From: Escherichia phage vB_EcoM-Ro121c4YLVW
Strand: one strand, 5' to 3'
Sequence record: NC_052654.1
Length of the DNA: 64,000 nucleotides
The position numbers and the translations under genes were made by a program. Numbering within the stretch: the first letter of the stretch is position 1; every line of letters begins with the position of its first letter. The notes beneath the pieces are model-generated. The model worked only from the letters and a program-made list of their open reading frames with translations, ran no database searches and had not been told where the DNA came from. This document shows, piece after piece, positions 2,856 to 50,067 of this stretch.

Positions 2856-3675
2856 TCAAACTCAAATTTTTGCAAATAAATTTGATGACCTGGAAACTGC
2901 TACTTTTGATATCAAAGATTATTCAAAATTGAAATTTGGTAGTAACCAAGCTGCGCGTCGTATGGGTAAAGAATTGGCACTTCAGTTTTTTGCTCAAGTG
3001 GCAATGAAACATATTGGGGAACAATTTGTTATCATCCCTTCTCCTTATAACCATGTGCATAATGCTGCAACAATGATGACAGATCATTTTATTAATTACT
3101 TTAATATGTTGCAAGCACAATATGATCAAGGTCGTTCAGCAGAACTGGATATTATTCATCGTAAAGTTAGCTATATCAACGATTATGGTTTCTTGGATAA
3201 AGCTAGTCGTAAGAAACTTATTGATGGGGATACATTCTACTGCAACAAAGAATTCTGGGGTGATAAGAAGCTTGTGTTCATTGATGATGTAAATATCACC
3301 GGAACTCATGAAGACAAACTGATTGAGATTCTTGATGAAAATCAAGTTAAAAATGATGTTTACTTCTTGTATTTTGCAAAATATGAAGGTAATCAAGCAG
3401 ATACTGAAGCTAAACTGAATTTTAACTACATCAATACACCAGAAGCGTTTGTTAAAATGATTAATGAAGAACGTGATGCACAGTGCCTTGTTCGTCCTAT
3501 TAAGTATCTTATGGGCCAAAATCACGAAGACTTCAAAATCATTCTTAGCCAATTGCCACACTACTATGTAGAGCAACTTTTCTTTGGATGTTTGGGAGAA
3601 GGTTACAACCGAATTTCAAAGTATGCTGAAAACTTTGAATTCTTGGATCGTTACACAAAACAACATATTCTGTAA
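2848..3675 (+). CDS. Phosphoribosyltransferase (type I PRTase fold, Ter-associated/ComF-like type)
   Basis: PRPP-binding loop KLVFIDDVNITGTHEDK (hydrophobic-DD-x-x-TG-T). The ORF overlaps the HAD gene by 8 nt. Confidence 0.8.
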   Translation: MRNQTQIFANKFDDLETATFDIKDYSKLKFGSNQAARRMGKELALQFFAQVAMKHIGEQFVIIPSPYNHVHNAATMMTDHFINYFNMLQAQYDQGRSAELDIIHRKVSYINDYGFLDKASRKKLIDGDTFYCNKEFWGDKKLVFIDDVNITGTHEDKLIEILDENQVKNDVYFLYFAKYEGNQADTEAKLNFNYINTPEAFVKMINEERDAQCLVRPIKYLMGQNHEDFKIILSQLPHYYVEQLFFGCLGEGYNRISKYAENFEFLDRYTKQHIL

Positions 3676-3688
3676 TAAGGAGCTAAAA

Positions 3689-4162
3689 ATGCTTAAAATG
3701 AAAACAGGTAATCTTATTGATGCCGCTAAAGCAGGAGAAGTAACTGTTATTGCTCATTGTTGCAATTGTATGTGTAATATGGGAGCAGGAATTGCTCCGC
3801 AAATTAAACGAGCATTCCCTTATGCATATGCGGCAGATTTAGACACAATGGCTGGTGATCAAAGTAAGTTAGGTTCTTTTAGTTTAGGGGTGCCAGACGA
3901 ACAATCAGACCCTTTGGTATATAATCTATACGGACAATACCGTTACGGATACAATGCTAAAGGTCGTCAGTTGGACTATGATGCACTTTACGATGCACTA
4001 ATAGCTATGGCTAATGATTTGCTTCTCCGTGACCAAAAATGTAAGATCGGCTTACCTATGATTGGCGCTGGATATGCTGGAGGTAATTGGGCTATCATCC
4101 AAGTGATGATTGAAGAAACTTTAGTAAAAACAGGTCACGATGTGACTATTTATAAACTTTAA
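3689..4162 (+). CDS. Macro-domain protein (ADP-ribose binding/processing)
   Basis: Start re-set to the ATG at 3689 (RBS aaggag, after the PRTase stop at 3675). Motifs: GNLIDA...VIAHCCNC...GAGIAPQIKRAFP and GLPMIGAGYAGGNW. Confidence 0.8.
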   Translation: MLKMKTGNLIDAAKAGEVTVIAHCCNCMCNMGAGIAPQIKRAFPYAYAADLDTMAGDQSKLGSFSLGVPDEQSDPLVYNLYGQYRYGYNAKGRQLDYDALYDALIAMANDLLLRDQKCKIGLPMIGAGYAGGNWAIIQVMIEETLVKTGHDVTIYKL

Positions 4163-4475: not shown

Positions 4476-5447
4476 ATGCAACTCGGTTTCCCAATTATTG
4501 ATGTAGTTGTTTTAGTTGGTATTTTGGCATTGTCTATTGGTATCGATTTCTTTGGTCATAAAGAGAATAAAGAAATTGGAATTAAATCTGCTTTGCTTTG
4601 GTCTGTTTTTTGGATTGCTTTAGCTTTAGGATATTACGCATTCATTTGGGTAGAGCATGGTAAAGAGTTTGCCGCACTTTTCCTAAGTGGATATGTGTTG
4701 GAAAAGAGTCTTTCTGTAGATAACCTAATGGTGTTCATGGCAATTTTTGCAAGCTTTGGAATTAAGAGCACACATCTCCAACATAAGATTTTACTTTGGG
4801 GTATTGCAGGTGCCATTGTCTTCCGAGGTGTTTTTGTTGCAGCAGGGACAGCTTTGTTTAACCTGCATTGGTCGGTCCAAGTGTTGTTCGGTCTGATTGT
4901 AGCTTGGTCTGCCGTTGCTATTATCAAAGGTGGTGACGAAGAAGATATTGATTACTCTAAACATTGGGCTGTTCGTTTAGTAGGTAAAGTTCTGCCTGTG
5001 CACAACGCACTGGATGGTGAAAAGTTCATTACCATTAAGAATGGTATTAAATATGCAACTCCTGCTCTTCTTTGTGTGTTTGTTATTGAGCTTACAGATA
5101 TTGTGTTCTCTTTTGATTCAGTTCCGGCTGTTATTGGTGTGACACAAGAACCTCTGCTAGTTTATTCTGCAATGCTGATGGCTGTTCTTGGTTTACGTGC
5201 ACTTTTCTTTGTGTTAAGTGTAGCTGTGAAATATCTGGTTCACTTAGAGAAAGCTGTTGCTGTGGTTCTGGTGTTTGTTGGTGCTAAACTTATGTATCAC
5301 CCGTTCGGTGAAACACTTCATGCCAAGTGGTCATTCCTCCCGCATGATATTTCCCCTAACGTAAGTCTGATGATTGTTCTAGGCACATTAGCTCTTGGTG
5401 TTATTGCAAGCTTTATCTTCCCTGAAAAAGAAGAAGCTGCTGTTTAA
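4476..5447 (+). CDS. TerC/Alx-family integral membrane protein
   Basis: Polytopic hydrophobic protein carrying the TerC signature GYVLEKSLSVDNLMVFMAIF, and a second half with FSFDSVPAVIGVT. Confidence 0.9.
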   Translation: MQLGFPIIDVVVLVGILALSIGIDFFGHKENKEIGIKSALLWSVFWIALALGYYAFIWVEHGKEFAALFLSGYVLEKSLSVDNLMVFMAIFASFGIKSTHLQHKILLWGIAGAIVFRGVFVAAGTALFNLHWSVQVLFGLIVAWSAVAIIKGGDEEDIDYSKHWAVRLVGKVLPVHNALDGEKFITIKNGIKYATPALLCVFVIELTDIVFSFDSVPAVIGVTQEPLLVYSAMLMAVLGLRALFFVLSVAVKYLVHLEKAVAVVLVFVGAKLMYHPFGETLHAKWSFLPHDISPNVSLMIVLGTLALGVIASFIFPEKEEAAV

Positions 5448-5453
5448 TAGATG

Positions 5454-5477
5454 AGCCTCCTTCGGGAGGCTATTTTA
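5454..5477 (+). terminator. Rho-independent terminator
   Basis: AGCCTCC-ttcg-GGAGGCT followed by attttat. Confidence 0.75.
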
Positions 5478-5489
5478 TAGGAGAGACTT

Positions 5490-5840
5490 ATGAGTAATTT
5501 TGATGAAATTCAAAAACTTGTTTGGGATTTACCTGATGATGTTGATTACGTTTCAGATTATCTTTCAAAAGTTTACCCTGGGGTAAGCGTTATGATTGTG
5601 ACCAAAGATCCAATTAATTTGCCTCCTAATGTGGTAGCTTGTTGTGGGAGTGGTTCAGGGGAAGTGGAGCCTGTATCCCGTTGGGAATTAACTAAAGCTG
5701 TTTCAAAACGAAACGGTGAAGTTTTGAATATTGATATCGAGCAAATATGGACTTCTCCAGCAGCTAAATGGAATGATCCGAATGGTTGGGACTTGTTCTT
5801 CTGGGATAATGAAACTGATGATGAGGTATTTTTAAAATGA
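5490..5840 (+). CDS. Hypothetical protein
   Basis: RBS aggagag. 116 aa with no recognisable motif. Confidence 0.55.
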   Translation: MSNFDEIQKLVWDLPDDVDYVSDYLSKVYPGVSVMIVTKDPINLPPNVVACCGSGSGEVEPVSRWELTKAVSKRNGEVLNIDIEQIWTSPAAKWNDPNGWDLFFWDNETDDEVFLK

Positions 5841-6082
5841 AATACTTGTTGGTTGTGTTTGAAAATATTTGTTTTGCAATAGGGTTGTTTGTTGTAATTT
5901 TTGTATTGACAAGCGTAATCAACGGCAGTAAAGTGAGTTTATACCGAGATGGAGAGCAACTTTATTGCTTCTCTGGAGATTTCAAACACAGATGTATTAA
6001 TAGCCAAAACGAGGAAAGCAAATATGAAAAAACTAGCCCTGATTTTAATTGGTTGTATCTTTTTAACAGCTTGCGAGGATGA
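5837..6082 (+). CDS. Possible small membrane protein (uncertain)
   Basis: ATGA overlap with the upstream stop and a hydrophobic N-terminus. However, it overlaps the lipoprotein gene start by 59 nt and contains a promoter-like site. Confidence 0.3.
   Translation: MKYLLVVFENICFAIGLFVVIFVLTSVINGSKVSLYRDGEQLYCFSGDFKHRCINSQNEESKYEKTSPDFNWLYLFNSLRG
5906..5934 (+). promoter_or_regulatory. Sigma70-like promoter upstream of the lipoprotein gene
   Basis: TTGACA (5906-5911), 17 nt spacer, TAAAGT (5929-5934). Confidence 0.4.
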
Positions 6083-6461
6083 AACAAATCCTGCACAATA
6101 CCAACAACCTCCTCAACAATACGCTCAACAAGGATCTGACGGAGATACAACTATTATCAACAATGGTGGCGGTTCTAGTAGTAGCGGTGTTGGTGAGTTT
6201 GCTACAGGTATGTTGTTAGGGCATATGATGAGTGGCGGTAGTAATCGTAGCAGTGGGGATTATAACGATAACAGAACGATTATTAATAAGCATTATAATA
6301 CACCTAAACCGAAAACTAATTTTTATAGTAAGCCTAAACAAGAGATAAAAACTTATGAAAAGCCGAGACAAACTTTTAAAACAAATAGTAGCTATACAAC
6401 TCGTAAATCTTACAATAGCCCTTTAAGTAAAAAGAGTTCATCTCGTAGCAAGCGACGTTAA
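6024..6461 (+). CDS. Lipoprotein with a Gly/Ser-rich middle and a Lys/Ser-rich basic tail
   Basis: Start re-set to the internal ATG. MKKLALILIGCIFLTAC is a signal peptide with a lipobox (LTAC). The RBS is gaggaaag. Confidence 0.7.
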   Translation: MKKLALILIGCIFLTACEDETNPAQYQQPPQQYAQQGSDGDTTIINNGGGSSSSGVGEFATGMLLGHMMSGGSNRSSGDYNDNRTIINKHYNTPKPKTNFYSKPKQEIKTYEKPRQTFKTNSSYTTRKSYNSPLSKKSSSRSKRR

Positions 6462-6475
6462 TAAGGAGAAAAACA

Positions 6476-7069
6476 ATGACAATTTCTATTCGTACTTCCA
6501 TCGTAGGTGTTAAAAGGTTGCCTAATGCTTTGCAAATCACACGCGCTTTGAGGGATACATTCTCTGCTGTGGACGAGCATAAGATGCTTGATAATCTTTC
6601 AAATTGGCCCTATTTCCATTATTTTAAAAATGAAGATGACGAGTTTATAGACGCTGTTTCTTATGGTTATGATTTCGGTAAGGAGGTTTCTGCTGAAGAA
6701 TTTGTAGCTATGGTGTTCCCAAACGGTTTGCCTACTCGCAGTAAACGTAAAAAAGGACCAAAAAACAAGAAACGTGCTACTAATAAAGCTACCATTTTCT
6801 TTACTGATGGCACACAATATACGATTAAAGATTTTGAAGAGGTATCTTATACAGCAGGTGGGAATCTTTCTTTCTACACCATCAAAAAACAAAACTCTAC
6901 GTTCAGCCATGTTTCTAACATGATTGAAATGTTAGTAGAAGATATTGAAAGCGTAGCTGTGTTAGGTATGCATAAAAGCTTTTTAATTACAAATATTTCA
7001 GATTTCAGTGCACGTTTATCTGGTCCTGATTTTGAAACCACGACCACGCATTTCACTTTTAAGGTGTAA
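6476..7069 (+). CDS. Hypothetical protein with a basic patch RSKRKKGPKNKKR
   Basis: RBS aaggagaa. 197 aa with no family motif recognised. Confidence 0.55.
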   Translation: MTISIRTSIVGVKRLPNALQITRALRDTFSAVDEHKMLDNLSNWPYFHYFKNEDDEFIDAVSYGYDFGKEVSAEEFVAMVFPNGLPTRSKRKKGPKNKKRATNKATIFFTDGTQYTIKDFEEVSYTAGGNLSFYTIKKQNSTFSHVSNMIEMLVEDIESVAVLGMHKSFLITNISDFSARLSGPDFETTTTHFTFKV

Positions 7070-7072
7070 GTT

Positions 7073-28618: not shown

Positions 28619-30643
28619 TTATCGTGTTACAACAACCATGTCCACGATATCACCCACACCAGGATACGTTAATTGCAAAATTGTTACTGCGTTAGCAGTA
28701 GTTGCTATTTCTGTATCATTTAGTGCTCCATAAGACGCATCTAGTGTAACCGTGTGTCCCGTTGTATCTTGAATCAAATAAATCATTGCTGAAAACGCTT
28801 TAGGTTTTGTAGAGCCAGTGACACCAGGCCATGCTCCAACTGTCAGAGCGTCAGTTACTGTAACAACATACATATTGGAAGTTCCAGAAGGAGTCCAAGA
28901 TGCTCCAGAGTTGGCAGTAGTTGTTTCAAGTTCCATGAAACCTGCTGTAACTTTAGTTGGTGTTATAGCTTCCGTAGGATCTGATCCTGATATTTCGATC
29001 CAGTTTCCATCAGACCGACCATACGTCAAGCCGTCTTGAGGGGCTTCTGGTATACTAGGAAGAGTGCCTATAAGCGTCCACGTAGAAGAATCTGTTTTCT
29101 TAAACACTGCTCCAGTGGTAGTATTGAAGGCGTAATCATTGATAACACCGTCTCCTGTGACTGGATTAGTTGTTGCTACAAACCACTGTGCGCCATCCTT
29201 ACCGTTGGTCCCATCAGTACCGTTGGTTCCGTTTGTTCCAGGATCACCCTTATCTCCTTTATCCCCTTTTTCACCTTTGTCGCCTTTAATACTTCCCATG
29301 TCAACAAAAGATGCGGAATTGGTGTCTTGATCGTAGGTATAGATGTAAAGATTACTAGTGTCTTCAGTTAAGTAAGCATCACCATAGTTATTGTAAACAG
29401 GGAGAGCTTCACTGTTCGGAACATGACCTTTAGCTGTAATTGATGTTCCTCCAAGACTGCCAACATTCATCCATTCCGTAGCATCTTGGACCCAAACATA
29501 TAAATCATTATTAATTTTATATGCGTCACCTACTTCTCCAGTAGGAGGAAGTTCAGCTTCACTGTTCAGAACCCCGATAATCTCTAAGCCTGATCCTGTT
29601 GCACCCACTGGTCCTTGTGGACCTAGTTCACCTTGTGGACCTCGCTCTCCTTGATCACCCTTGTCTCCTTTTGGACCTTTAAGTGAGGCAATAAAATCTA
29701 CTTCTGTCCCTTCATTACCAGCATCCAGCCAACTTTGATATGCAGATTTCCCTTCATCTCCATCTGTTCCATCAAGACCGTCTTTACCTGCCTCACCTTG
29801 TGGACCTTGAGGACCAACAATATTACCCATGTTGACCCAAGCTGTCCCATTAGAGACATAAAGATTACCATTGATAGAATAAGCTTGGCTTACGTTTTCA
29901 GAGTTAGGTTGTGGTAAGTTACTTGTAGAAGGTAAATCCCCACGATAATCAAAACCGTTGGCGTTAACACCAGGTGCTCCCTGTGGCCCTGTAGGACCAA
30001 CATCACCTTTATCACCTTTTATAGAGGTAAGAAAGTCATAAACAGATCCTGTATTACCATCTGCCAACCATACCTCATAAGCTGATTTCCCTTCTGGTCC
30101 AAGAGAAGAAATAAGTTTCCAAACAGAACCATCCCAAGCGTAAATCACATCACCTACGATATAACCATCTCCTGCGATGTTACCTGTAGATGGTAGTTCA
30201 CTAGTGCTTGCTAATGATCCCTTAATATTAAGTTGAGCACCAGTATCTCCTTTCAAAGAAGCAAGCCACTGGGCTTCTGTTCCAACAAAACCATTATCAA
30301 GTGCGATCTGATAAGCCGATTTACCAGCTTCAGGTATTGCTTCTGACAAATCATTAATCTGTTGTTGCACTGCCGTAAACTTGGCATTGATAATTGCTAT
30401 ATCATCAGCGGTCCCAACATTTTGCCATGCAAGGGAAGAAATACCACCTGTGGTGGCTGGCGTAGAGTTTGCTGGAACTACTTTAGGAAAAGTTCCTTTC
30501 CATTGGTAATAATTCCCTTCTGCTGCTAACAGCAAAACTTCACGGGAATTACGTAATGTAAAACCTGCCTCAAAGCTGCGACGTTTTCGATAAGTAGCTT
30601 CTACCAGATCGGCTATCGCACTATTAGGTCTTGTTAAATTCAT
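28619..30643 (-). CDS. Tail fibre with collagen-like G-X-Y tracts
   Basis: G-X-Y tracts: GDKGDVGPTGPQGAPG, GPQGPQGEAGKDGLDGTDGDEG, GPKGDKGDQGERGPQGELGPQGPVGATG, GDKGEKGDKGDKGDPGTNGTNGTDGTNGKDG. There are three GKSAY(Q/E)..L..G...(F/W)..S(L/I)KG modules. Confidence 0.8.
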   Translation of the reverse strand: MNLTRPNSAIADLVEATYRKRRSFEAGFTLRNSREVLLLAAEGNYYQWKGTFPKVVPANSTPATTGGISSLAWQNVGTADDIAIINAKFTAVQQQINDLSEAIPEAGKSAYQIALDNGFVGTEAQWLASLKGDTGAQLNIKGSLASTSELPSTGNIAGDGYIVGDVIYAWDGSVWKLISSLGPEGKSAYEVWLADGNTGSVYDFLTSIKGDKGDVGPTGPQGAPGVNANGFDYRGDLPSTSNLPQPNSENVSQAYSINGNLYVSNGTAWVNMGNIVGPQGPQGEAGKDGLDGTDGDEGKSAYQSWLDAGNEGTEVDFIASLKGPKGDKGDQGERGPQGELGPQGPVGATGSGLEIIGVLNSEAELPPTGEVGDAYKINNDLYVWVQDATEWMNVGSLGGTSITAKGHVPNSEALPVYNNYGDAYLTEDTSNLYIYTYDQDTNSASFVDMGSIKGDKGEKGDKGDKGDPGTNGTNGTDGTNGKDGAQWFVATTNPVTGDGVINDYAFNTTTGAVFKKTDSSTWTLIGTLPSIPEAPQDGLTYGRSDGNWIEISGSDPTEAITPTKVTAGFMELETTTANSGASWTPSGTSNMYVVTVTDALTVGAWPGVTGSTKPKAFSAMIYLIQDTTGHTVTLDASYGALNDTEIATTANAVTILQLTYPGVGDIVDMVVVTR

Positions 30644-30704: not shown

Positions 30705-33700
30705 TTAGGTTGTTGGCACATCTACTACTGGCGTTGGGCGAATAACCGCAGTATTACCTACAGAAACATTACTGGAATCATTAGGTATGGTTTTAATTCT
30801 AACTCCAGCACTTGTAGGCGTTACAATTGGATCTGCAATGTCTATTTTAACTGGGTTAGTCCACGTATCATTATCTTGATAAGGTGCACGAGTAATAACT
30901 GTGTCCAAATCTGCTCCACCTACGCCAGCACCAGGAATACGGATACGTGTCCCTGCTGACAGAGGGTAATGATACAACCAAGAAGCATTTGTTGCTGTCC
31001 CGTTAGGAGTCAAGTTCTGTGTCAGGAAGGTATCTCCTGCCTGTGTAGCTCGAATACCGAAAGCTGGGATATCTGGAATATATGCCCCACTTGTTGTTAC
31101 AAGGAAGAACGTATTATCCGCCTTGACTATCATATCACCTTTGTCAAACTCTTTCCCTGTTGGGAAATGCATTCCATCAATGTTTCGACTAGGATTAGGT
31201 TCTAAGTAATAAACTTTGCCCGTTGTCCCTACAATAGCTCCAATACCACCTGCGATATTGGTATACATATTAGCTTCAACATTACAGTTGACACGATGAA
31301 TATCCGAGTAACGGCAACGGCTCCACTGTGGACGACCAGTAACCATCGTCTTGCCATCTGGGTAACAGTTCACGTTAACCATTTCAAGAACAGATTTTTC
31401 TCTACGGAAGAATCCATCATAAAATGTCCCTGGACCAGATTCAGGTTGACCAACACAATCGAAGATATTACAGGTGATGTTAGACATTGAAAGCCAAGAA
31501 GCTATACCGAACAACTGCAATGCAGCGCAACGAATATTTTCAAAGCTAACTCTGTTTTCATAACCTGGCCCAGCGGAAACTCCTGCAAAAACACGCCCAG
31601 TTTTGGTGTGAATATTACGAACAGAATAGTTAAAGCATGGGTTTGAAGGTCTACCCTGTGCCGGAACTACCGGATTACCCTCTTCGTCCAGAACTGCGTT
31701 AGTTCCCCACTCCAAATAAATCATACGGATATTACTTGCAAGTGTGCTACCGTCTGTTTTAGGCTCTCCGTAAACACCGTCAATCGTAAAATCTTTACTT
31801 CCATACATTACAACTGCGCCAGTTGCCAAACCTGTCCCAACAGATACAGTCTGGTCTGGATCGCCATGAATGTTTTCGATAGAGATATTACGACCAACTT
31901 CTACGTGGACAATCTGACGACAACGTTTTGCAAAAACGTTACGAATTGTAATATTCTTGCAATATTGATCATCAGGGATTCCGTAACCATATGGTCCTTT
32001 ACCAGCTACACCGATACCGATACCCCAGTTGGACAGAGGAATAGGAGCGTTAGTCCCATCGATATTAGACAGGTAAATATTCTCAATCACACAACCATCG
32101 TCATAATGTTTATTGATGACGTTCAGTTCTATTGCATCACCTTGCATATCCATGAAGGTAAGGTTACGGAAGACACCACGTGTTACTGGTTCCCCTGTTC
32201 CTTGTTGAAGGATGCCATACAACCCGTTTTTAAAAGTACAATTATCAATTTCAAAAGTACCTGATATTGGGTTGCCTTGGAATACCAAGCTACCAACTTG
32301 ACCTGCGCGAGGAGCACCGTCCCACAAACAATCGAACATGCGCACAGCACCACCCCAATACATAACACGAGAGTTACGGAAAGTTGTGCCTTCTACTGTA
32401 GCATTTTGCACACGATAGTCGCGTTGACCACGGAACACACCCCCACGCAAAGTGATACCTTGAATATCAAAAGAGCTTGTCGTGAAAGTCATATCGCAAC
32501 CGTAAGCATCGAGAATCTTGCTTTTCGAAGCTTTTGCTGCTAACAGTGCCGCTTGGAAAGCTGCTTCTGGTGTGGTATATGTTGTTGTGTTGTTAGCAAA
32601 TTCTGACAAGTAGACAACATCGAATAAATCGTTGTATGTTCCACCACGAGGGGTTAACAGTCCTTCTGTATTGGTCAGAACCCATGCATTTGGACCTAAT
32701 CCACCGCTTGTCTCCAATGTATCGGAGGCCAAAATACTTTTTGGTAAACTTCCAGCCCAACGATAACGACCAGCACCACGTCCAATCGTCTGATTTTTAG
32801 CTGTCAGAGTTACGTTATTACCAAAGCTTGTAGGCAAATGAACAAACTGTCCACGTTCAACAGCTAGTGCAGAAAGATCTACAGACCCCCCAGAATAAGT
32901 CATTACTCCAGAAACAGACAAGGATGTTAAAGTTCCTGTGATGTTAGGAGGTAATGTGTAGGAAGACTGTGCTACTGGATCATACAGAGCTTTAATCCCT
33001 GTTAATGATTGACCTGCTGTTGCGTAAGCCACCTCATCATCTAACAAACCATATTTACGAGCAATAGTTTGCAGAGGGACTTTATCCATGCTTTCTGTTA
33101 GTTCTTCCGTTTTTGTTTCTAAACTAACAAGACGGTTCTCTAGATTAGGATCTGTATCTGCTGAAGCTACGATTTTACCAATATAAGCAAAAAGCTTGTT
33201 TGGTAGTCCTGTTGCAGGATCGTGTCCCAAAGGTTCAGATAAGATGATCTTACTATCTTCTATACGGAAAGCTTCCCCCAGAACCTGAATAACACCATTG
33301 ATCGTAACAATAGCACTATCAAAGATGTAAGGAGGACTAATTACTGTTTCATAACCCGTTGCACCAGAGTATACCCACGGGGTGACTTCTGTTGCTAATT
33401 GTTCTGTTTTCAGTCCCCACAATACCCAGTTGTTATCTCCTACTGGAGTCCCTTGCATAGGGATTGGGTTAACCAATGTAGCGTTAGGGGCATAGTAATA
33501 ACCGCTCAATACTCCATTCTGGAAATAACGAAGTTGGTTAAAAACTGTTTCGTTTGTGCCTTGCGCCCAATCCAATGGGCTTTTAAAGAAAAAGTTGTCA
33601 ACAAGGGCTTTTCTCAGGGTTGGTATCAACCCTGATTCTGTTTCAATACTCTCTGTAGCACTTCCATTAATAACATCATGGAGTTGGTTAGATGAGAAAA

Positions 33701-33758
33701 TAACCAGGTCTACGCCCTGTTCGAGAGACGTTGCTGGATATGTTGGGAATGTTGCCAT
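30705..33758 (-). CDS. Tailspike with a beta-helix-type (pectate-lyase-like) central region
   Basis: 1017 aa. An N-terminal anchor is followed by an internal docking module (residues about 229-361, ..IARKYGLLDDEVAY...GGSVDLSALAV...YRWAGSLPK...SGGLGPNAW). After that come long repetitive N/G/V-rich beta-strand repeats, e.g. NITIRNVFAKRC and ISIENIHGD. Confidence 0.75.
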   Translation of the reverse strand: MATFPTYPATSLEQGVDLVIFSSNQLHDVINGSATESIETESGLIPTLRKALVDNFFFKSPLDWAQGTNETVFNQLRYFQNGVLSGYYYAPNATLVNPIPMQGTPVGDNNWVLWGLKTEQLATEVTPWVYSGATGYETVISPPYIFDSAIVTINGVIQVLGEAFRIEDSKIILSEPLGHDPATGLPNKLFAYIGKIVASADTDPNLENRLVSLETKTEELTESMDKVPLQTIARKYGLLDDEVAYATAGQSLTGIKALYDPVAQSSYTLPPNITGTLTSLSVSGVMTYSGGSVDLSALAVERGQFVHLPTSFGNNVTLTAKNQTIGRGAGRYRWAGSLPKSILASDTLETSGGLGPNAWVLTNTEGLLTPRGGTYNDLFDVVYLSEFANNTTTYTTPEAAFQAALLAAKASKSKILDAYGCDMTFTTSSFDIQGITLRGGVFRGQRDYRVQNATVEGTTFRNSRVMYWGGAVRMFDCLWDGAPRAGQVGSLVFQGNPISGTFEIDNCTFKNGLYGILQQGTGEPVTRGVFRNLTFMDMQGDAIELNVINKHYDDGCVIENIYLSNIDGTNAPIPLSNWGIGIGVAGKGPYGYGIPDDQYCKNITIRNVFAKRCRQIVHVEVGRNISIENIHGDPDQTVSVGTGLATGAVVMYGSKDFTIDGVYGEPKTDGSTLASNIRMIYLEWGTNAVLDEEGNPVVPAQGRPSNPCFNYSVRNIHTKTGRVFAGVSAGPGYENRVSFENIRCAALQLFGIASWLSMSNITCNIFDCVGQPESGPGTFYDGFFRREKSVLEMVNVNCYPDGKTMVTGRPQWSRCRYSDIHRVNCNVEANMYTNIAGGIGAIVGTTGKVYYLEPNPSRNIDGMHFPTGKEFDKGDMIVKADNTFFLVTTSGAYIPDIPAFGIRATQAGDTFLTQNLTPNGTATNASWLYHYPLSAGTRIRIPGAGVGGADLDTVITRAPYQDNDTWTNPVKIDIADPIVTPTSAGVRIKTIPNDSSNVSVGNTAVIRPTPVVDVPTT

Positions 33759-36355: not shown

Positions 36356-37843
36356 TTACACTCCATACTCGTAAGAAATGTTATCAAGGTCAAAAGAAGG
36401 GACAACATTATAAGCAGGAACTATATTATTCTCTGTATATTTACTGTCATCCTCAGTATTAAGTTTAACATAAACACGAAGAGAAGTCAAGCGTCCAAAA
36501 GCAAGTGCTGCATAAATAACACCTTTGATTTGATCGTTCGTTACTGAAGAACCTAATTCAAAGTAAGCTTGCAGGTTTTGTAAAGCTTCTACAATGTTTT
36601 GTTTTTCTGTTCCACTTAAAGTTGTTCCGTTGACAGTTTGATAAACAAGTTTTACGGAATACATAGCAGAAGCACCAGGAGAGAAGCGAATAATTTCTTG
36701 TCCTCCATCTTCTGTTGTAACTGTTATGTTAGTTGTTCCGTGTGTCAAAGTGTTGATTGGTTTGGTTTTATAGATAACATTTGCAATTTCTTCTGCACTG
36801 CCACCATAAACTATAGTCTGGAAAGTCATAGCTGGAGCGTGTTCTTGATCATGTAACGTAGGGTTATCATAAATCTTCACCTTAGTGACACCATCTGTAA
36901 GTAACAGAGCTTTCACAATAGCTGCTCGTGTCCCTGCGTTAGCTTCGTCAACGTTGTCATTGAAACGAGAGCGGAATTCTGCATCTGTCTCAACATCTCG
37001 ACCAGGAGAAAATGAATAGAAGTTACCACTGTCAAGATAACCTGTAAAGGTAGAAGATATCCCTGTAATAGACTCCACACCAACAGGATTGTATCCTTTC
37101 TCTGCTGCAACTACCGGAATCTCACTCCATTTGGTTCCAACCGGAACACTAGCATAAAATTTAATAGGAGTTACCAGCCCCACTGGAGTATCACTGGTTA
37201 AAGAAGTAAAACCAATTGATAAGTTACCTGAATCAGAAAATACAAGACTACGATCAGCTTCTGTTAAATTTGCCTTGATAAAAGTTTCAAGATCGGTTAT
37301 AAATGTAGAAGAACCAGGTGCAAGTGTTTTACTGTTTAGTCCTCCATCGACCGCACTTTGTGCATAAAAAGTAATATTCGGAACACCTGTAGCAGTTGCA
37401 TTAGCACGAGAGATTTGATAAGCTGCAATCTTAGCATTCAACATAGTTGGTGTGCTAACATAGTAGTTCATATCACTATCAGAGTTGAAGTAAATATCCG
37501 TGCCTAGCTCATAAGTCCAAGCTGCTTTGTTATTACTCTTAACATATGCATAACCTGTACTTGCTGCTGCACCTGCTCGATAGAAACCGCGTTTAGAAAA
37601 GATTTCATCAAGATAAATACCTTCTGCACCATCCAGTGTTTGAGTATTATAAACACCTTGCATACCTTCCCACAATGTGTAATCTGTGTATGCAATTATT
37701 CTAAACAGTTGTCCGATCACAGTATCTTCCGAAGTGGCTGCATCTGCACCAAATGTGTTTTTTACTGCTGTCATGTAGTTGTTTAAAACATCGTCAAAAG
37801 TCGGGATTACAAATCCCGCATCTGTCAAACCATATTCGTCCAT
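36356..37843 (-). CDS. Baseplate J-like protein
   Basis: 495 aa. The N-terminus GFVIPTFDDVLNNY...AEGIYLDEIFSKRGFYRAGAAASTGY fits the Baseplate_J pattern. Confidence 0.75.
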   Translation of the reverse strand: MDEYGLTDAGFVIPTFDDVLNNYMTAVKNTFGADAATSEDTVIGQLFRIIAYTDYTLWEGMQGVYNTQTLDGAEGIYLDEIFSKRGFYRAGAAASTGYAYVKSNNKAAWTYELGTDIYFNSDSDMNYYVSTPTMLNAKIAAYQISRANATATGVPNITFYAQSAVDGGLNSKTLAPGSSTFITDLETFIKANLTEADRSLVFSDSGNLSIGFTSLTSDTPVGLVTPIKFYASVPVGTKWSEIPVVAAEKGYNPVGVESITGISSTFTGYLDSGNFYSFSPGRDVETDAEFRSRFNDNVDEANAGTRAAIVKALLLTDGVTKVKIYDNPTLHDQEHAPAMTFQTIVYGGSAEEIANVIYKTKPINTLTHGTTNITVTTEDGGQEIIRFSPGASAMYSVKLVYQTVNGTTLSGTEKQNIVEALQNLQAYFELGSSVTNDQIKGVIYAALAFGRLTSLRVYVKLNTEDDSKYTENNIVPAYNVVPSFDLDNISYEYGV

Positions 37844-38085
37844 TAGTCATCCTCTTTGGTAGATTGTGATCTGCCCCAGCGTAAATCAATAAGATTTTTC
37901 ATGAGGCGAGAAGGAGTTATCATGAAAACAAAAGCCCAACCCATCCATTCAGGAATTTCTTTTTCTATTCCTAAAAAGATAAACATGCCTGTCATAACCG
38001 ACATGCCTACAGCGTTCCAGACTTTCGTAGAACTGACTTTATTATCAGGATATGTACAGAACATACCTATTAAAAATTTTCTCAT
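37843..38085 (-). CDS. Small two-TM membrane protein (holin-like topology) inside the baseplate operon
   Basis: Hydrophobic segments VWNAVGMSVMTGMFIFLGI and WMGWAFVFMITP, with a charged tail RWGRSQSTKEDD. There is an ATGA overlap upstream and a TAATG overlap with the J-like gene start. Confidence 0.5.
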   Translation of the reverse strand: MRKFLIGMFCTYPDNKVSSTKVWNAVGMSVMTGMFIFLGIEKEIPEWMGWAFVFMITPSRLMKNLIDLRWGRSQSTKEDD

Positions 38086-38390
38086 AGTGCGTTCTCATTA
38101 CTTTTTAAATCACAAGATATAGCTAATTCCCCAAGGTCTACAGAACCCGCTGAATGCACAAGTACAGCAGCACTAAGACTAATGGCAGTAGTACCTGGGG
38201 CAATATCAGCAGGTAGGGAATACGCCCTTTGCGTCTCCTTATCATAGATAACCTTATACCCACCCAAATCCACACCAACTGAGAAGTAAACAACCTCAGA
38301 TTGTTTAACTCCAAAGTGACGGGCTACTGCTTGTTTATTGGTTAAGATTCCGGTTGAACCTTTACCACCTTGGGAGAACATTTCGTTCAT
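38082..38390 (-). CDS. Stand-alone tailspike N-terminal docking-domain protein (102 aa)
   Basis: NKQAVARHFGVKQSEVVYFSVGVDLGGYKVIYDKETQRAYSLP...HSAGSVDLGELAI aligns with residues about 229-300 of the 1017-aa tailspike in this window. It stops where full-length spikes continue. Confidence 0.6.
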   Translation of the reverse strand: MNEMFSQGGKGSTGILTNKQAVARHFGVKQSEVVYFSVGVDLGGYKVIYDKETQRAYSLPADIAPGTTAISLSAAVLVHSAGSVDLGELAISCDLKSNENAL

Positions 38391-38414
38391 AACAACCTCT
38401 TTGTTTTTCTAAGT

Positions 38415-38436
38415 AAGCCCCTCTTTGGAGGGGCTT
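38415..38436. other. Strong stem-loop in the 249-bp non-coding gap
   Basis: AAGCCCCTC-tttg-GAGGGGCTT. There is no U-tract on either strand. It sits about 25 nt upstream of the 102-aa ORF start. Confidence 0.5.
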
Positions 38437-38617
38437 GCAGTGGTAGTGACAACACTTTGAGTTAGTACGATAGTAACTAAAGACAAGATTAACCCTGCTA
38501 CGATATGTTTTCATCATTTTATCACATGGCGATGACATGCACTTGCAGGACATAGCTTGTGTGGATTGTGCTGAATGCAATTTTGGCCTATTGTCATCAG
38601 TAAGAAAGCATTCATTC

Positions 38618-38638
38618 CCCCGCCGAAGCGGGGTTTTT
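38618..38638 (+). terminator. Hairpin plus T5 run, oriented as a plus-strand terminator and abutting the stop of a minus-strand tailspike gene
   Basis: CCCCGC-cgaa-GCGGGG followed by ttttt on the plus strand. The same core recurs at 50051-50066. Confidence 0.45.
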
Positions 38639-38639
38639 G

Positions 38640-40928
38640 TTATATAACTGAAGTAACAACACCATTGATTGTTGCTTTTATCTGTGCAGTTGGATGAGGT
38701 CTAACATTAATGGTTCCTCTATTGCTTGATGCCCCAATGAATACATCATACCCTGAAGTTGCGTTGAAATCCGAGAACAGGCTAACCGGGCTTGCATTCT
38801 GAGTGGCAGGCACAGCAGATGATGTTCCATAACGCTTCAGGATACCTGGTGTTGCTAAGGATGATGCAGCATCGCGACGGCAAGTAACGTCAAGATCAAA
38901 TGTGTATCCATCAAACCCGTATTGTGTTGAATCCTGATAAAGTTTCATTACTTCTACTGTTGAACCTCCGACAGAAGAGTTATGGTTAAGTCCTGTGAAC
39001 TTCATTCTGGTAAATCGATTGTCCTGCGCAACTGTATCGAATGTCTTTTCAATTTTAAGGCTGCTTAAACCATATACACCGTTCAGAAGTATAGGGTTCT
39101 GAACACGCGTACTCATGCTTATATCAATAGTCGGCGCGTTATACAGGTCAATCCTGTCACCAATGGAACCTGAACGATCTTTGATATTTACGGCAATAGA
39201 AAATGTAGCATCATTATTATCAATTTTTATTGTCGATCTCTTATCTACCTCTATTGTCATAGATGGAGATGACTCTGCTACTGAAGTTCCTGTTATTGTC
39301 AAAGAACGTGGATATTTAGTTACATATATTTTTGCTTCTTCGCTATAGTTTCCCGCCACAAAGGTTGCCTGGCTGTCTCCTATGCGTATTTCACCAGTTT
39401 CAACAGTTGCAGCAATAACAGACGTTCCAATAATCGGAACCTCTACTTTAGTTCCGGAAGGGAAATCAGATGTCATTGCTCGATCAAGAGTAATGACGTT
39501 TCCCGATATTGCTGTAATTCTTCGAGTCTCAACACCGCCAGTCGAGTTTGTAAAAGCAATCTCAAACCAGGTATCAAAACCAGAGGCATCTGCAACAGTA
39601 ACAGTGTTGTCATTGATAGATGCTGGCGATGTTAGTGTGGTGCTCATACCCTCAATAGACAAAGTACATTGGGCTTTGTCACTACTACCAATGTAACCCA
39701 TCAACTTGATGGAGTTATTACGAACTCGAACACCGTATTTAGTAGCCGTCGAGCCGTTTTTTGTTCCCTGTGAGTGTCCATACCAATACATAACAAGATG
39801 TAAAAGATCGTAGTTGCTGATACGGTGATCAATTGATTTATTACGAACAGTAGCATAAGGCGCAGTATAGATAGCTCTGGCTGCTGCGCTGGCACCATTA
39901 TTAGAAATGTTGCCATTTACGGTGAACCCTTCGACGGTTTGGTGCCAGTGGAAACGGTCACGGTTCCTGTCACGCGGATCAATTCCGACATGGTGCAGTG
40001 AAATGTCAGATGACGTTGACATGATTATTGTTGCGTCATTTCCGGCACCGGAAAAAGTAAATCCTCGACGATCAACATCAAGGTTGATTGTATTTGATAG
40101 ATAACTTCCGGAAGGGAATGATAACTTAGATATTATACTGTTAGCCCTTGCAACCCTGTTTGCTTCATCTATAGCAACTGAGTTTTCATCTGCGTCTGCA
40201 CCGCCAAAACCGAATTCATCATACCCCATGCTCTCTCTTACAATTAAGTTGGCATTAAACCCGCCCGCTATTGGGATTGAGTATGTATCATCATTTTGTG
40301 TTGTTGATATTAACCATTCTGACTCAGATCTTATTCCATGTTTGTTTTTATATGTTTTTACAGTCATCCCTTCGCTGAATGTGGCACCATCCCCTGATGG
40401 CAGAATTCCAGATATTAACTCTGAAACGCTATTAAATATTATAGTTGTGTTTTTATTAACCCACAATCTCAAAGAAGCATCGCCAACACTAACCCACGCA
40501 CTAGGACCAACGCCACCAGTTGATGTAGGGGTTGATTTAGGTGGTACATCTTTAGGGAAACCAGACCCCCATGTGTAGCACTGAGCACCCGCTATGTACC
40601 AGACAGCATCAGTTACACTGCCCACTGTAGCCCCTTCTTCAAAACTACCATCAACAAGAGTTAACCCAGCCTCGGCAAGACTACGACGCCACTGTTCACG
40701 ATCATTAAGAAGATTGTTATTCAACTCTTCCTGAACAGTATTACCATTTGAGGATTGTATTAAATCTGCTCCATCTGTATCTTTCAACTGGGTGGCTAAA
40801 ACCACCCCAGTGTCAGTAAGAAAGTTGGAAACTGTGCTTTTAACAGTCTTATCAGGTTGGTCTAAAACCAGGTAATCAGAACCATTAACTTTTGATGTTT
40901 CGGGTAAATTAGTAATTGTAGTTGACAT
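38640..40928 (-). CDS. Tailspike/tail fibre protein
   Basis: N-terminus ITNLPETSKVNGSDYLVLDQPDKTVKSTVSNFL is a fibre attachment motif. It is followed by RRSLAEAGLTLVDGSFEEG...YTWGSGFPKDVPPKSTPTSTGGVGPSAWVSVGD and then a beta-rich body. Confidence 0.75.
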   Translation of the reverse strand: MSTTITNLPETSKVNGSDYLVLDQPDKTVKSTVSNFLTDTGVVLATQLKDTDGADLIQSSNGNTVQEELNNNLLNDREQWRRSLAEAGLTLVDGSFEEGATVGSVTDAVWYIAGAQCYTWGSGFPKDVPPKSTPTSTGGVGPSAWVSVGDASLRLWVNKNTTIIFNSVSELISGILPSGDGATFSEGMTVKTYKNKHGIRSESEWLISTTQNDDTYSIPIAGGFNANLIVRESMGYDEFGFGGADADENSVAIDEANRVARANSIISKLSFPSGSYLSNTINLDVDRRGFTFSGAGNDATIIMSTSSDISLHHVGIDPRDRNRDRFHWHQTVEGFTVNGNISNNGASAAARAIYTAPYATVRNKSIDHRISNYDLLHLVMYWYGHSQGTKNGSTATKYGVRVRNNSIKLMGYIGSSDKAQCTLSIEGMSTTLTSPASINDNTVTVADASGFDTWFEIAFTNSTGGVETRRITAISGNVITLDRAMTSDFPSGTKVEVPIIGTSVIAATVETGEIRIGDSQATFVAGNYSEEAKIYVTKYPRSLTITGTSVAESSPSMTIEVDKRSTIKIDNNDATFSIAVNIKDRSGSIGDRIDLYNAPTIDISMSTRVQNPILLNGVYGLSSLKIEKTFDTVAQDNRFTRMKFTGLNHNSSVGGSTVEVMKLYQDSTQYGFDGYTFDLDVTCRRDAASSLATPGILKRYGTSSAVPATQNASPVSLFSDFNATSGYDVFIGASSNRGTINVRPHPTAQIKATINGVVTSVI

Positions 40929-40936
40929 TTTTACTC

Positions 40937-43090
40937 CTATATATAAAATTTTTGTGTTGTTACTAAATCTTCTCCAGATTTAGTAGCTAATGTAATTCCA
41001 CTTATGGTAGCAATCTCAACATTTGCTTGTTTAAGAGTGATATCTTGCAAATAACAATTCAAAGGCACATTACCCATATAGAAAACTTGGGATTGAGAAT
41101 TAACTACCGTGATGGAATCATGCATTATTTGAGGATAGGCCCATATATATTGTGTAAGCCCATTGAACTTATTGGCGTTCAACACTATATTACCTATAAT
41201 CATTTTCCAAAGATACGTGCGGTAGTTTGATTCAGGATCGAAGCCATACAAAGGTGCAAGAGTAGCATCTGGAACAAAACCCGAAAGATAGTGAATATCA
41301 GAATATTCAAAACCTAATTTTTCATGTGGTATGGTAATTGCATCGAATGCTTTCATCATTTTACCTTCCAGAAGCCAGTCGTAACACTCTGAACAGTAAA
41401 AATCAAAAGTTTCAGGAATGTAGTAATCAGACGGAAAGTTAACTTTCTCCATCAAACCGTTGCCAATAATTGACGGTAAGAACGGAAGCAATGTTACTTT
41501 AGCCCCTGGATAAGTTGCTCTGGTGTCTGTTGCAAACTTTGTAACTCTTAACCCTAGTTTACGAGACAAAAATGCATAGTATTCGTCAAATGGTGTTCCT
41601 GTTTTATAATTATCTATTGTTCCTGCATCTTGTGCAAATAAGCCTGTTTCTGTATTGAATGCCAGTTTGGTAGTGTAATCATATATACAAGGCATTTTAC
41701 TTGCTGTATTATACCACCACCAAGGTTCACCAATTTGAATGACGACTGGAATATTGTTAGCTTGAGAAATAGATGCTATTTTGTTAATAACATTTTGCAA
41801 ATATTCCATGCCTTCGTCAATAGTTGGAGACAACACGTAACTAGGAGGCTTATACCCTGTTGCTGCAAGAGCATCGTTCCAATCATGCTGGACCCATTCA
41901 ACAGGACAAACTGTGCTCATCAACTCAAAACTTAAAGAGTTCATTATTGTGTAACCCTTCTCGTTCGCTATAGAATGGAAACTATTTAGCCAAGCTTCTG
42001 TAGCTGGATTCAGGAAGACAGATCTATTTAAAGCCCAAGATGTTCCGTTCCATGAGAACTCATAATAGTGAGACATTCCGTTGTAATGGTTAATCATTCC
42101 ACGATAACCTAGTGCATATGTATTATAAATAACTCTCTCTGGAGTCAGGTTATACATATCATCATAAGATGTGCACATGCGAATATCATGTTCAGGCTGG
42201 ACAAGGTTGCTGACTTTCATCATACTGTAACCAGAAGTAGGTTCAAGAAGAGTGAAAGTAAACCAAGCCTCTTGACTGGCAATAGGTACAATCTCTTCTA
42301 TTTCTTCATACCTTGCTGTAATCAAAGAGAAGAAAATATTATCTACAGCACTCATATCCAAAGGAATATCATTATTAGGGCCAGAAAAGATATTACCAAA
42401 ATCTAACTTTATTGTGGCTGTTTTACCATCTTCTGAAATATCTGAAGCGTAGAATCCTAAACTGACATAATGAACACTTTTATCCAGGAGAGTTACAGTC
42501 AAAGTCGGCACCAAAGGTTCTTCTTTAAAACCTGGCATGTTTTGACTAATTTCCATTTTAAACCAAAGTTTCTCTGAACTTAAATCTGTGTGAGGCAAAT
42601 ACCCAACACCTTTATGGTCATATTTGTCAACTGTGCTCCAAATAACCCCTGCCAAACCTGCTGTTGTTCTGTTTACAAATCTTGCAGTAAAAGAGTCTCC
42701 ATGAGATACAATAGAACAACTTTCCGTTGCTTGAGAATCTATTGTCCAATACATAGGAGAGAACATTTTAACGTCTTTTGTAGTCCAAGTTATTGGAGTA
42801 GTATTTTCTTGGATAGTAGTTATAATACAATTGATGGTTGTTTCAACCATCATGTTATTTTGACTAATCCCTGAAACTTGGAGGGAGAAGTTAAGATCTA
42901 TTGAGTTCTTTGGTCGTTCAAATACTTCAACCACAATAGTAGCAGAATCAGCATCATCAGGGAACACAAGTGTTCCCGATTTTGCAATATAATCTCTACC
43001 AGCGACTGCTGTTCCGTCAACAGTCGTGTAGTTAAATGAACTCGCATTTACTCTCTTGTCTCGCGTGACAGTAAATATAGCTTGTTTCAT
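40937..43090 (-). CDS. Tail-associated protein with an N-terminal Calx-beta domain and a glycosidase-like (TIM-barrel-like) body
   Basis: FTVTRDKRVNASSFNYTTVDGTAVAGRDYIAKSGTLVFPDDADSATIVVEVF fits Calx-beta. The later segment NIPVVIQIGEPWWWYN and its surroundings suggest a TIM-barrel enzyme, but that is tentative. Confidence 0.6.
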   Translation of the reverse strand: MKQAIFTVTRDKRVNASSFNYTTVDGTAVAGRDYIAKSGTLVFPDDADSATIVVEVFERPKNSIDLNFSLQVSGISQNNMMVETTINCIITTIQENTTPITWTTKDVKMFSPMYWTIDSQATESCSIVSHGDSFTARFVNRTTAGLAGVIWSTVDKYDHKGVGYLPHTDLSSEKLWFKMEISQNMPGFKEEPLVPTLTVTLLDKSVHYVSLGFYASDISEDGKTATIKLDFGNIFSGPNNDIPLDMSAVDNIFFSLITARYEEIEEIVPIASQEAWFTFTLLEPTSGYSMMKVSNLVQPEHDIRMCTSYDDMYNLTPERVIYNTYALGYRGMINHYNGMSHYYEFSWNGTSWALNRSVFLNPATEAWLNSFHSIANEKGYTIMNSLSFELMSTVCPVEWVQHDWNDALAATGYKPPSYVLSPTIDEGMEYLQNVINKIASISQANNIPVVIQIGEPWWWYNTASKMPCIYDYTTKLAFNTETGLFAQDAGTIDNYKTGTPFDEYYAFLSRKLGLRVTKFATDTRATYPGAKVTLLPFLPSIIGNGLMEKVNFPSDYYIPETFDFYCSECYDWLLEGKMMKAFDAITIPHEKLGFEYSDIHYLSGFVPDATLAPLYGFDPESNYRTYLWKMIIGNIVLNANKFNGLTQYIWAYPQIMHDSITVVNSQSQVFYMGNVPLNCYLQDITLKQANVEIATISGITLATKSGEDLVTTQKFYI

Positions 43091-50044: not shown

Positions 50045-50067
50045 AAAAAACCCCGCCGAAGCGAGGT
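50045..50067 (-). terminator. Rho-independent terminator after the tape measure gene
   Basis: Minus strand reads ACCTCGC-ttcg-GCGGGGT followed by tttttt. The stem has one mismatch. Confidence 0.65.

Follow-up and report, generated by a model that had tools for sequence, protein, structure and literature searches.

A Truncated Tailspike Gene in a Probable Recombination Seam of Escherichia Phage vB_EcoM-Ro121c4YLVW

INTRODUCTION

It is known that the modular exchange of tailspikes can leave a truncated gene behind, and the locus described here is a further, well-resolved instance of this that invokes no new mechanism. It lies in a 64,000-nucleotide (nt) stretch of Escherichia phage vB_EcoM-Ro121c4YLVW (NC_052654.1; the whole stretch is termed the window), where an open reading frame (ORF) encoding 102 amino acids (aa; 38082-38390, minus strand) is preceded by an intergenic gap of 249 nt (38391-38639) and the gene of a 762-aa spike, and is followed by a homologue of gp144 of phage phi92. 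We consider it probable that this ORF is a gene stump, made of 94 tailspike codons followed by 8 unrelated ones, that sits in a recombination seam at a swap-prone spike slot.

The head domains of such tailspikes are named here after those of phage CBA120, as D1/TD1 and D2/TD2 (PMC8825819, PMC8432352, PMC11414711). An initial annotation, made from the letters of the window, had treated the corresponding segments as the two parts of a split docking module. D1 and D2 are instead tandem domains that are autonomous and homologous to each other (PMC8825819), and not the halves of one module. TD1 comprises residues 1-96 of CBA120 TSP1 (PMC8432352), TSP2 of the same phage naturally carries D1 only, and XD3, a gp10-like domain of TSP4, is bound by D1 of TSP1 (PMC8825819).

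THE ORF ENCODES A D1 HEAD DOMAIN AND NO SPIKE BODY

By its sequence and its predicted fold, the 102-aa ORF is a D1 domain. In phmmer searches against the PDB it matches CBA120 TSP1 (4oj5) over residues 1-94 (E=4e-49), G7C gp63.1 (4qnl) over residues 1-93 (E=2e-43), and Gp48 of Shigella phage B2 (9d84), in agreement with the Det7/CBA120-class tailspikes named in the initial annotation. Amino acid identity to residues 1-93 of TSP1 is ~90%, and tblastn finds 90-92% identity between residues 1-92 and Kuttervirus spikes. The relationship extends to the DNA, which is 86.8% identical to that of Kuttervirus SenALZ1 from 25 nt 5′ of the ATG through codon 94. The resemblance to an internal segment of the window's own 1017-aa spike, with which the initial annotation had compared the ORF, also stands up to formal alignment (residues 20-91 against 230-300; 41.7% identity over 72 aa, E=1e-14, blastp).

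In an AlphaFold2 model of the ORF product, residues 17-93 are predicted to fold, with a predicted local distance difference test score (pLDDT) of 76-88, while residues 1-16 and 94-102 are predicted to be disordered. Searched with Foldseek against the PDB at E<=0.001, the model returns 18 matches, every one of them a D1 domain of TSP1-4, gp63.1, or B2 Gp48, at a template modelling (TM) score of ~0.7 normalised to the query. The predicted structure thus has the D1 fold, an N-terminal helix with a small beta-sheet domain.

What follows D1 in a tailspike is missing. PF18668 (Tail_spike_N), which corresponds to D2, has no match in the ORF at E<=0.1, nor has any other Pfam family, and no D2, neck, or beta-helix is encoded 3′ of D1, where the gp144 homologue comes next. 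The same family is found in the 674-aa fibre (residues 12-77, E=2e-19), the 762-aa spike (93-150, E=1e-14), and the 1017-aa spike (302-361, E=2e-9), precisely the three proteins to which the initial annotation had assigned its second part. Judged from sequence, the ORF has nothing of what a functional tailspike body requires, since D2, the neck, and the receptor-binding part are all absent. To call it decapitated, as had been done, inverts the situation: the head survives, and the body (D2, neck, and beta-helix) is what has been lost.

A SHARED JUNCTION AT CODON 94

In all Stephanstirmvirinae copies the DNA homology to SenALZ1 ends at codon 94, and the limit is the same at the protein level. 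This truncation point coincides with the domain boundary of TSP1 (~residue 96). The codons beyond it show no homology to any spike, and residues 94-102 are predicted to be disordered (pLDDT <50). The tail DLKSNENAL/P and the ATGA overlap with the next gene recur in identical arrangement in every relative bearing the stump, and an origin for the last 8 codons was not found in the leaders of gp144 homologues that lack it. Most amino acid differences among near-identical copies fall at residues 90-93 and 102, and from codon 91 onward most near-identical pairs differ by 0 synonymous versus 1-4 non-synonymous changes.

STATE OF THE ORF IN RELATIVES

The comparison covered 24 Stephanstirmvirinae loci, together with 34 protein clusters, the homologue search behind which yielded short proteins only. 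An intact ORF of 101-102 aa is present at 11 loci. Five others (UP17, KMB37, alia, J-01, and W22) carry a form of 49 aa that has lost residues 10-62 in frame and cannot fold as D1. A foreign N-terminus of 38 residues is fused at residue 39 in SKA64, a new start yields 63 aa in ALITA, and ESCO9 is start-less through a deletion that runs from the middle of the loop of the preceding terminator to codon 58. One IMG/VR contig is frameshifted, EcoM_01 has assembly Ns at the ORF site, and phi92 and nine IMG/VR loci have nothing at this position. The protein clusters add the frameshifted forms P0023 and P0031, as well as P0034, in which the N-terminus of an N4-like gp63 is fused to the stump.

On these comparisons the ORF is probably a gene remnant, cut short in comparison with every functional homologue where unrelated sequence begins, and decayed or absent in viable close relatives. 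This was the first of the two explanations originally offered for it, and the truncation shared at codon 94 and the further deletion, fusion, or loss in sister phages speak for it. As a separate observation, the chimeric ORF of SKA64 encodes 114 aa (oriented locus 3357-3701), its hydrophobic N-terminus being annotated as like gp37 of coliphage K1F, and the body of the spike ahead of it shares 68% DNA identity with the esterase gp63.1 of G7C.

A GAP PROBABLY STITCHED FROM INTERGENIC DNA

Read from its sequence, the gap is stitched intergenic DNA that presents, in minus-strand order, the cut terminator of the 762-aa spike gene, a U1G-type block, a degenerate inter-spike terminator, and a donor-type leader. 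Within the tail-fibre module no intergenic stretch is larger, but in the window, whose only long non-coding stretch it had initially been called, ORF-free stretches that equal or exceed its length occur elsewhere, partly as a reflection of ORF settings.

The two hairpins described initially are both present. The one abutting the 762-aa spike gene had been taken for a plus-strand terminator, and on that strand positions 38618-38633 indeed read CCCCGC-CGAA-GCGGGG followed by T5. On the minus strand the spike gene ends as TAA-C-AAAAA-CCCCGCTTCGGCGGGG, after which the window continues with GAATGAATGC. SenALZ1 has the identical 24-mer after its TSP1-like gene, followed by T5, and the same stem stands after G7C gp66 and gp63.1. 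The hairpin is thus better described as the terminator of the spike gene with its minus-strand U-run cut away, and a T-run is seen only on the plus strand because the junction falls right after the stem. The DNA up to 38637 is common to phages PD06 and PD114, whose receptor-binding domain differs.

The second hairpin, with its stem of 9 bp, occupies a position that holds CCCCGCTTCGGCGGGG+T in G7C, KKP3954, PaulScherrer, and anhysbys, and CCCCTCTTCGGAGGGG+T5-6 in SenALZ1, nieznany, and KMB37. Its stem is preserved by paired changes (CGC/GCG, CTC/GAG); the two hairpin classes sit one base out of register in the alignment, and formal pair counting was dropped. As rho-independent terminators both hairpins have good stems, but the minus strand continues with GAAUGAAU and CUUACUUAG after them, and the homologous hairpins of SenALZ1, G7C, and nieznany do carry T5-T6. 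By this comparison, each of the two hairpins in the gap is the terminator of a spike gene, now without its U-tract. The leader between the second hairpin and the stump, CTTAGAAAAACAAAGAGGTTGTT-ATG, is nearly the same ahead of G7C gp63.1, the TSP1-like gene of SenALZ1, and U1G gp80.

The recurrence of the GCTTCGGC core after the tape-measure gene, also reported earlier, was found again. In the whole window the core occurs 5 times (at 290, 12253, 18617, 38622, and 50055) against 0.59 expected. Hairpins with this core and its UUCG tetraloop appear to be the standard terminator type of the phage, and the same type stands between the spike genes of G7C and Kuttervirus.

An Rfam scan of 38250-38750 at E<=1 gave chance-level matches only, far under gathering scores, and the RNA fold of the gap (z=-2.7) is explained by the two terminator-type hairpins. 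A sigma-70 scan found no consensus promoter on its minus strand, where the extended -10-like string TGTGATAAAAT was seen by eye only. No coding remnant was detected in the gap by six-frame translation, by tblastn with G7C gp63 and U1G gp77, or by protein matches in three frames. A Cys/His-rich ORF of 72 aa with a TTG start (38362-38580, minus strand) overlaps the start of the stump; its DNA is non-coding in U1G, and it is most likely spurious.

MOSAICISM AND MOBILITY OF THE BLOCK

The copies of the stump are mosaics. Their 3′ half (SLPADIAPGTTAISLS...) is nearly invariant, and to this common half are joined 5′ halves that are TSP1-like, TSP3-like, gp63.1-like, or, in P0030, a very distant allele. 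The switch falls around the SLPADIAPGTTAISLS motif, the counterpart of the GTTAVSL site at which recombination within TD1 has been proposed (Sørensen et al., PMC8432352).

Compared with the window at the nucleotide level, PD06 and PD114, which are Justusliebigvirus phages and hence members of another genus, are 75-78% identical in the baseplate J gene and 83% in the gp144 homologue, and reach 98-100% (in one count 96-100%) in the stump and 100% in the stump-proximal half of the gap. As this is far above the identity of the flanking core genes, the stump and the gap would have moved recently between genera. In the sequences compared, the ORF forms a horizontally moving block together with the neighbouring part of the gap, and the gp144 homologue is the right-hand boundary of the mobile region, because identity steps down from the stump to that gene. 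The megablast breakpoints of other relatives are spread over 38205-38637.

Part of the same block occurs in U1G, an N4-like podovirus of the genus Gamaleyavirus, with 90.8% identity over 338 nt (38238-38575) and 95% in the non-coding part. Its counterpart in U1G lies 5′ of and inside gp80, with which a gp63.1-like spike, fragmented in this phage, begins. That spike (locus 5186-7070) is recorded as three ORFs, gp80 of 107 aa, gp79 of 266 aa, and gp78 of 177 aa, a split that represents either genuine fragmentation or sequencing frameshifts in the record. In Klebsiella phage ZCKP1, a 166-nt fragment of a G7C-like gp63 lies between spike and stump, directly 5′ of the U1G-type block (oriented locus 3317-3482). 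It matches residues 38-92 of G7C gp63 with 91.6% DNA and 93% amino acid identity, and is probably the annotated 52-aa "hypothetical protein".

A near-identical block over diverged flanks, part of which recurs in a podovirus of another family, agrees with the recombination seam that the initial annotation had suspected.

A PROPOSED ORIGIN AND ITS WEAKNESSES

From these observed homologies, junctions, distribution of forms, and identity discontinuities, we infer a direction and an order of events. The donors would have been G7C-like podoviruses or Kutterviruses, with a tandem order of spike gene, terminator hairpin, TTAGAAAAACAAAGAGG leader, and D1-type spike gene. A phi92/phAPEC8-like myovirus would have received a spike cassette of such a donor in its gp143 slot. 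The left crossover probably took place through D2 homology, since in the DNA that encodes D2 the 762-aa spike shares ~76% identity with the gp66-like genes of U1G and G7C. The exchange would then have overrun the stop of the donor spike and passed through the intergenic hairpin and the leader into the next donor gene, its right end being joined illegitimately at codon 94, just 5′ of the gp144 homologue. Thereafter the stump DNA could act as the right-hand homology arm for exchanges with similar donors, and later crossovers inside the stump or the gap would produce a constant 3′ half, a patchwork 5′ half and gap, and scattered breakpoints. Since homologous crossovers are in register, the reading frame would stay open without selection.

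The stump is probably transcribed and translated, given its good Shine-Dalgarno sequence, the loss of U-tracts from the terminators upstream, and a stop within the ATGA of the gp144 homologue. In this way it may feed ribosomes to that gene, whereas the D1 protein itself is presumably not needed by the virion.

Several observations weigh against this account. No full-length ancestor was found at the position, and no contiguous donor for the receptor-binding part of the 762-aa spike; a search of the phage collection for a receptor-binding part, intergenic DNA, and D1 start in one piece gave none for the window or for KKP 3954. The ORF is intact in 11 of the 24 loci and in 13 protein clusters (62-98% identity), always with 101-103 aa, and so widespread an intact ORF could reflect selection for the protein. 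Its good Shine-Dalgarno sequence and its place in a late structural operon make it probable that a D1 polypeptide is produced. Three independent events, namely the 49-aa deletion, the SKA64 fusion, and the ALITA start, all keep the ORF open to the ATGA, which hints at constraint, though one that may act on translation and not on the protein. An XD-like stretch of the 1017-aa spike, recognised by sequence, could in principle bind a D1 head. Substitution rates do not settle the matter: a Nei-Gojobori comparison of nine intact stumps and three full-length genes (dN/dS, the ratio of non-synonymous to synonymous rates) is uninformative among close copies, which by our own tally have ~4 non-synonymous versus 3 synonymous changes in codons 1-90, too few to use, and the divergent pairs differ through recombination with functional alleles.

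ALTERNATIVE EXPLANATIONS

The explanation that survives best beside a stump carried by recombination is that the ORF is kept as a leader ORF, whose ribosomes end at the ATGA and re-initiate on the gp144 homologue, the D1 fold being irrelevant. This is possible, although we give it clearly less credence. In all 19 loci in which the ORF starts with ATG, the 49-aa, SKA64, and ALITA forms included (EcoM_01 has Ns there), its stop and the ATG of the gp144 homologue overlap, and the Shine-Dalgarno sequence of the gp144 homologue is weak in stump-bearing genomes, consisting only of GAG 9 nt 5′ of the ATG, while AAGGA or GGAG precedes that gene in lineages that lack the stump. Yet ESCO9, which has no ORF, and the IMG/VR contig whose ORF stops 13 nt early both retain gp144, and in-frame outcomes are what homologous recombination would be expected to leave, with only 3-5 independent events to judge by. 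A leader role is plausible and compatible with the stump origin, to which it would add a function in cis.

It is unlikely that the 102-aa protein is instead a functional free D1 head, serving as an adaptor or plug on an XD domain (e.g., residues 121-200 of the 1017-aa spike) or completing D2 in trans, the second of the two roles initially suggested. The binding of XD3 of TSP4 by D1 of TSP1 (PMC8825819) offers a precedent, the 1017-aa spike has an XD-like stretch, intact forms of 101-103 aa are common, and the ORF is open, has a Shine-Dalgarno sequence, and is predicted in silico to fold. However, phi92 possesses a D2-only gp151 and an XD-like gp150 N-terminus, and no D1 was found in its structural module (50 kb searched). 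Five phages lack residues 10-62, and others are without the N-terminal helix or the start. D1 and D2 being autonomous, nothing needs completing, and the head constructs studied by analytical ultracentrifugation comprised D1, D2, and the neck, with Zn promoting trimerisation (PMC8825819). Binding has been modelled as one trimer docking on another, and neither D2 nor the neck is present in the stump. Finally, the stump is near-identical across genera, whereas its putative partners are ~75-80% identical. The idea of an adaptor for the proteins that carry only the second part does not fit the D2-only gp151 of phi92, the 49-aa forms, or the autonomy of the domains. No relevant Phapecoctavirus virion proteomics was found in the literature, and fibre attachment in phi92 is not resolved in the 2026 cryo-EM paper.

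More speculative still is a free D1, produced in the infected cell and ~90% identical to the docking domain of TSP1/gp63.1, that would block XD3 of TSP4 or gp66 in a co-infecting Kuttervirus or G7C-like phage and so poison the assembly of its spikes, or that would cap an empty XD site on the phage's own colanidase spike. Were this improbable decoy or cap real, the near-identical spread over two genera would reflect a benefit and not hitch-hiking.

The possibility that a full-length spike gene merely looks short here, through a frameshift in sequencing or through mis-assembly, can practically be dismissed: split spikes do exist in records (e.g., U1G gp80/79/78), but >10 independently sequenced genomes have this 309-nt ORF with an identical junction, and the downstream DNA is the gp144 homologue and baseplate J in all frames examined, with no coding capacity for D2 or a beta-helix.

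GENOMIC CONTEXT AND THE OTHER HEAD-DOMAIN PROTEINS

By megablast the window belongs to Phapecoctavirus (Stephanstirmvirinae), its top match being Escherichia phage vB_EcoM-P3322 with 98.4% identity over the queried 901 nt. Its tail genes are all on the minus strand, and its proteins were mapped onto phi92 by means of the annotated phi92 genome and direct comparisons (Table 1). In phi92, gp144 starts 48 nt after gp143, and both the 102-aa ORF and the long gap are missing. Two side observations may be recorded here. The 717-aa protein combines Pfam NCTSP_N and the TIM barrel of the N4 "non-contractile tail sheath" protein (E=2e-78) with a Calx-beta domain, a podovirus receptor-binding module inside a contractile-tailed phage. 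The record MG065650.1, which is entered as "Campylobacter phage B15" (150.7 kb) with Campylobacter jejuni as its host, shares 98% identity with the E. coli Phapecoctavirus locus, and its host label looks doubtful.

Table 1. Features of the stump locus and of the tail genes of the window, with phi92 counterparts
Feature	Coordinates	Strand	Remarks
674-aa protein			phi92 gp151
D2-only N-terminus of 674-aa collagen-like fibre	30413..30610	minus	residues 12-77; phi92 gp151 homologue
1017-aa protein	30705-33758	minus	phi92 gp150 (colanidase)
Contiguous D1-D2 head inside 1017-aa colanidase spike	32676..33074	minus	residues 229-361
111-aa protein			phi92 gp149
181-aa protein			phi92 gp148
353-aa protein			phi92 gp147
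209-aa protein			phi92 gp146
495-aa protein			phi92 gp145 (baseplate J)
80-aa protein	37843..38085	minus	phi92 gp144 (membrane protein); phrog_1322 E=2e-27; position agrees with gp144
8 out-of-context codons (DLKSNENAL) and TGA stop	38082..38108	minus	stop overlaps ATG of next gene (ATGA, 38082-38085)
Probable stump proper, codons 1-94 of 102-aa ORF	38109..38390	minus	D1/TD1 head domain of CBA120-TSP1 / G7C-gp63.1-type tailspike
Block shared with N4-like podovirus U1G (Gamaleyavirus)	38238..38575	minus	~185 nt non-coding and first ~50 D1 codons
Leader with Shine-Dalgarno sequence	38391..38413	minus	minus-strand CTTAGAAAAACAAAGAGGTTGTT-ATG; AGAGG at 38396-38400
9-bp-stem hairpin	38415..38436	minus	apparent degenerate counterpart of inter-spike terminator preceding D1-type spike genes; U-tract broken (CUUACUU)
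Apparent terminator hairpin of 762-aa spike gene, U-run gone	38618..38639	minus	minus strand AACAAAAA-CCCCGCTTCGGCGGGG; junction right after stem
762-aa protein	38640..40928	minus	variable phi92 gp143 slot
D2 of 762-aa spike	40479-40652	minus	residues 93-150
717-aa protein	40937-43090	minus	phi92 gp142
958-aa protein			phi92 gp141
Canonical terminator after tape-measure gene	50051..50066	minus	GCTTCGGC core (50055-50062) and T6 on coding strand

The 762-aa spike is 94% identical to phi92 gp143 over residues 1-54 only, its slot-specific anchor. Residues 91-157 match TSP1 residues 99-163, its only match to TSP1, and the 3′ part of the gene, which encodes the receptor-binding part, is near-identical only in vB_EcoM-P3322, a single record.

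The 1017-aa spike shares residues 1-215 with phi92 gp150 (75%), and there follow ~240 residues that include the D1-D2 head, in place of which phi92 gp150 has a shorter, unrelated segment. Residues 226-399 match the D1-D2 heads of TSP1, TSP3, TSP4, and gp63.1. An XD-like stretch at residues 121-178 weakly matches XD2 of CBA120 TSP2 (6w4q residues 18-71, E=0.015) and a podovirus tail adaptor protein, and from its sequence the architecture of residues 1-454 looks TSP2/TSP4/gp66-like, with an anchor, XD, D1, D2, and an enzyme. The 674-aa fibre, 60% identical to phi92 gp151 over its full length and 75% over the N-terminus, may dock with its D2-only N-terminus on the XD-like part of this spike.

RELATION TO KNOWN SPIKE SYSTEMS

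CBA120 TSP1 (ORF210; 4OJ5) and the TSP1 and TSP3 spikes of Kuttervirus resemble the stump in D1 sequence, in 25 nt of leader DNA, and in predicted fold. Unlike the stump, CBA120 TSP1 has D2, a neck, a beta-helix, and a C-terminal domain, and is a trimer and a receptor-destroying enzyme. G7C gp63.1 and B2 Gp48, which dock on gp66/Gp49-type fibres, share with the stump its N-terminal domain, the upstream hairpin, and the leader, and the gene order in such donors is one by which a 5′ fragment of the next gene could be co-transferred. They are nonetheless spikes of full length, esterases or hydrolases that belong to N4-like podoviruses, whereas the phage of the window is a 150-kb myovirus; and where G7C-type systems have a gp66-type XD2-XD3 partner, the window offers only a weak XD-like candidate.

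U1G gp80 is, like the stump, a short D1-only ORF, and the two share the 338-nt block described above; in U1G the remaining spike follows as gp79 and gp78, whereas the stump ends at a deletion junction to a gene of the baseplate module. The gp143 (endosialidase) slot of phi92 has the position, the 54-residue anchor, and the neighbours gp142 and gp144-147 in common with the window, but holds a single spike, gp143, which is without D2, and has neither a stump nor a long gap. The laboratory recombinant S117-tsp4-tsp5, with its truncated tsp4, illustrates that in multi-spike phages acquisition of a spike cassette readily leaves truncated genes reduced to their N-terminal assembly domains (PMC11414711). 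The AD-XD1-XD2 retained there is required to keep the complex together, a requirement that is not evident for a D1 stump.

IMPLICATIONS

The locus preserves a clear and datable record of how three unrelated groups with E. coli and Salmonella hosts in common have exchanged DNA: Kuttervirus, the phi92/phAPEC8-like myoviruses, and the N4-like podoviruses of Gamaleyavirus. It locates the sites at which crossovers occurred, namely the D2 and D1 head domains, the inter-spike terminator, and the leader, and such a map is useful for spike-swap engineering in broad-host-range "Swiss-army-knife" phages. It also carries a caveat for annotation: the many entries of 101-103 aa named "tail spike protein" in these genomes are stumps and not receptor-binding proteins.

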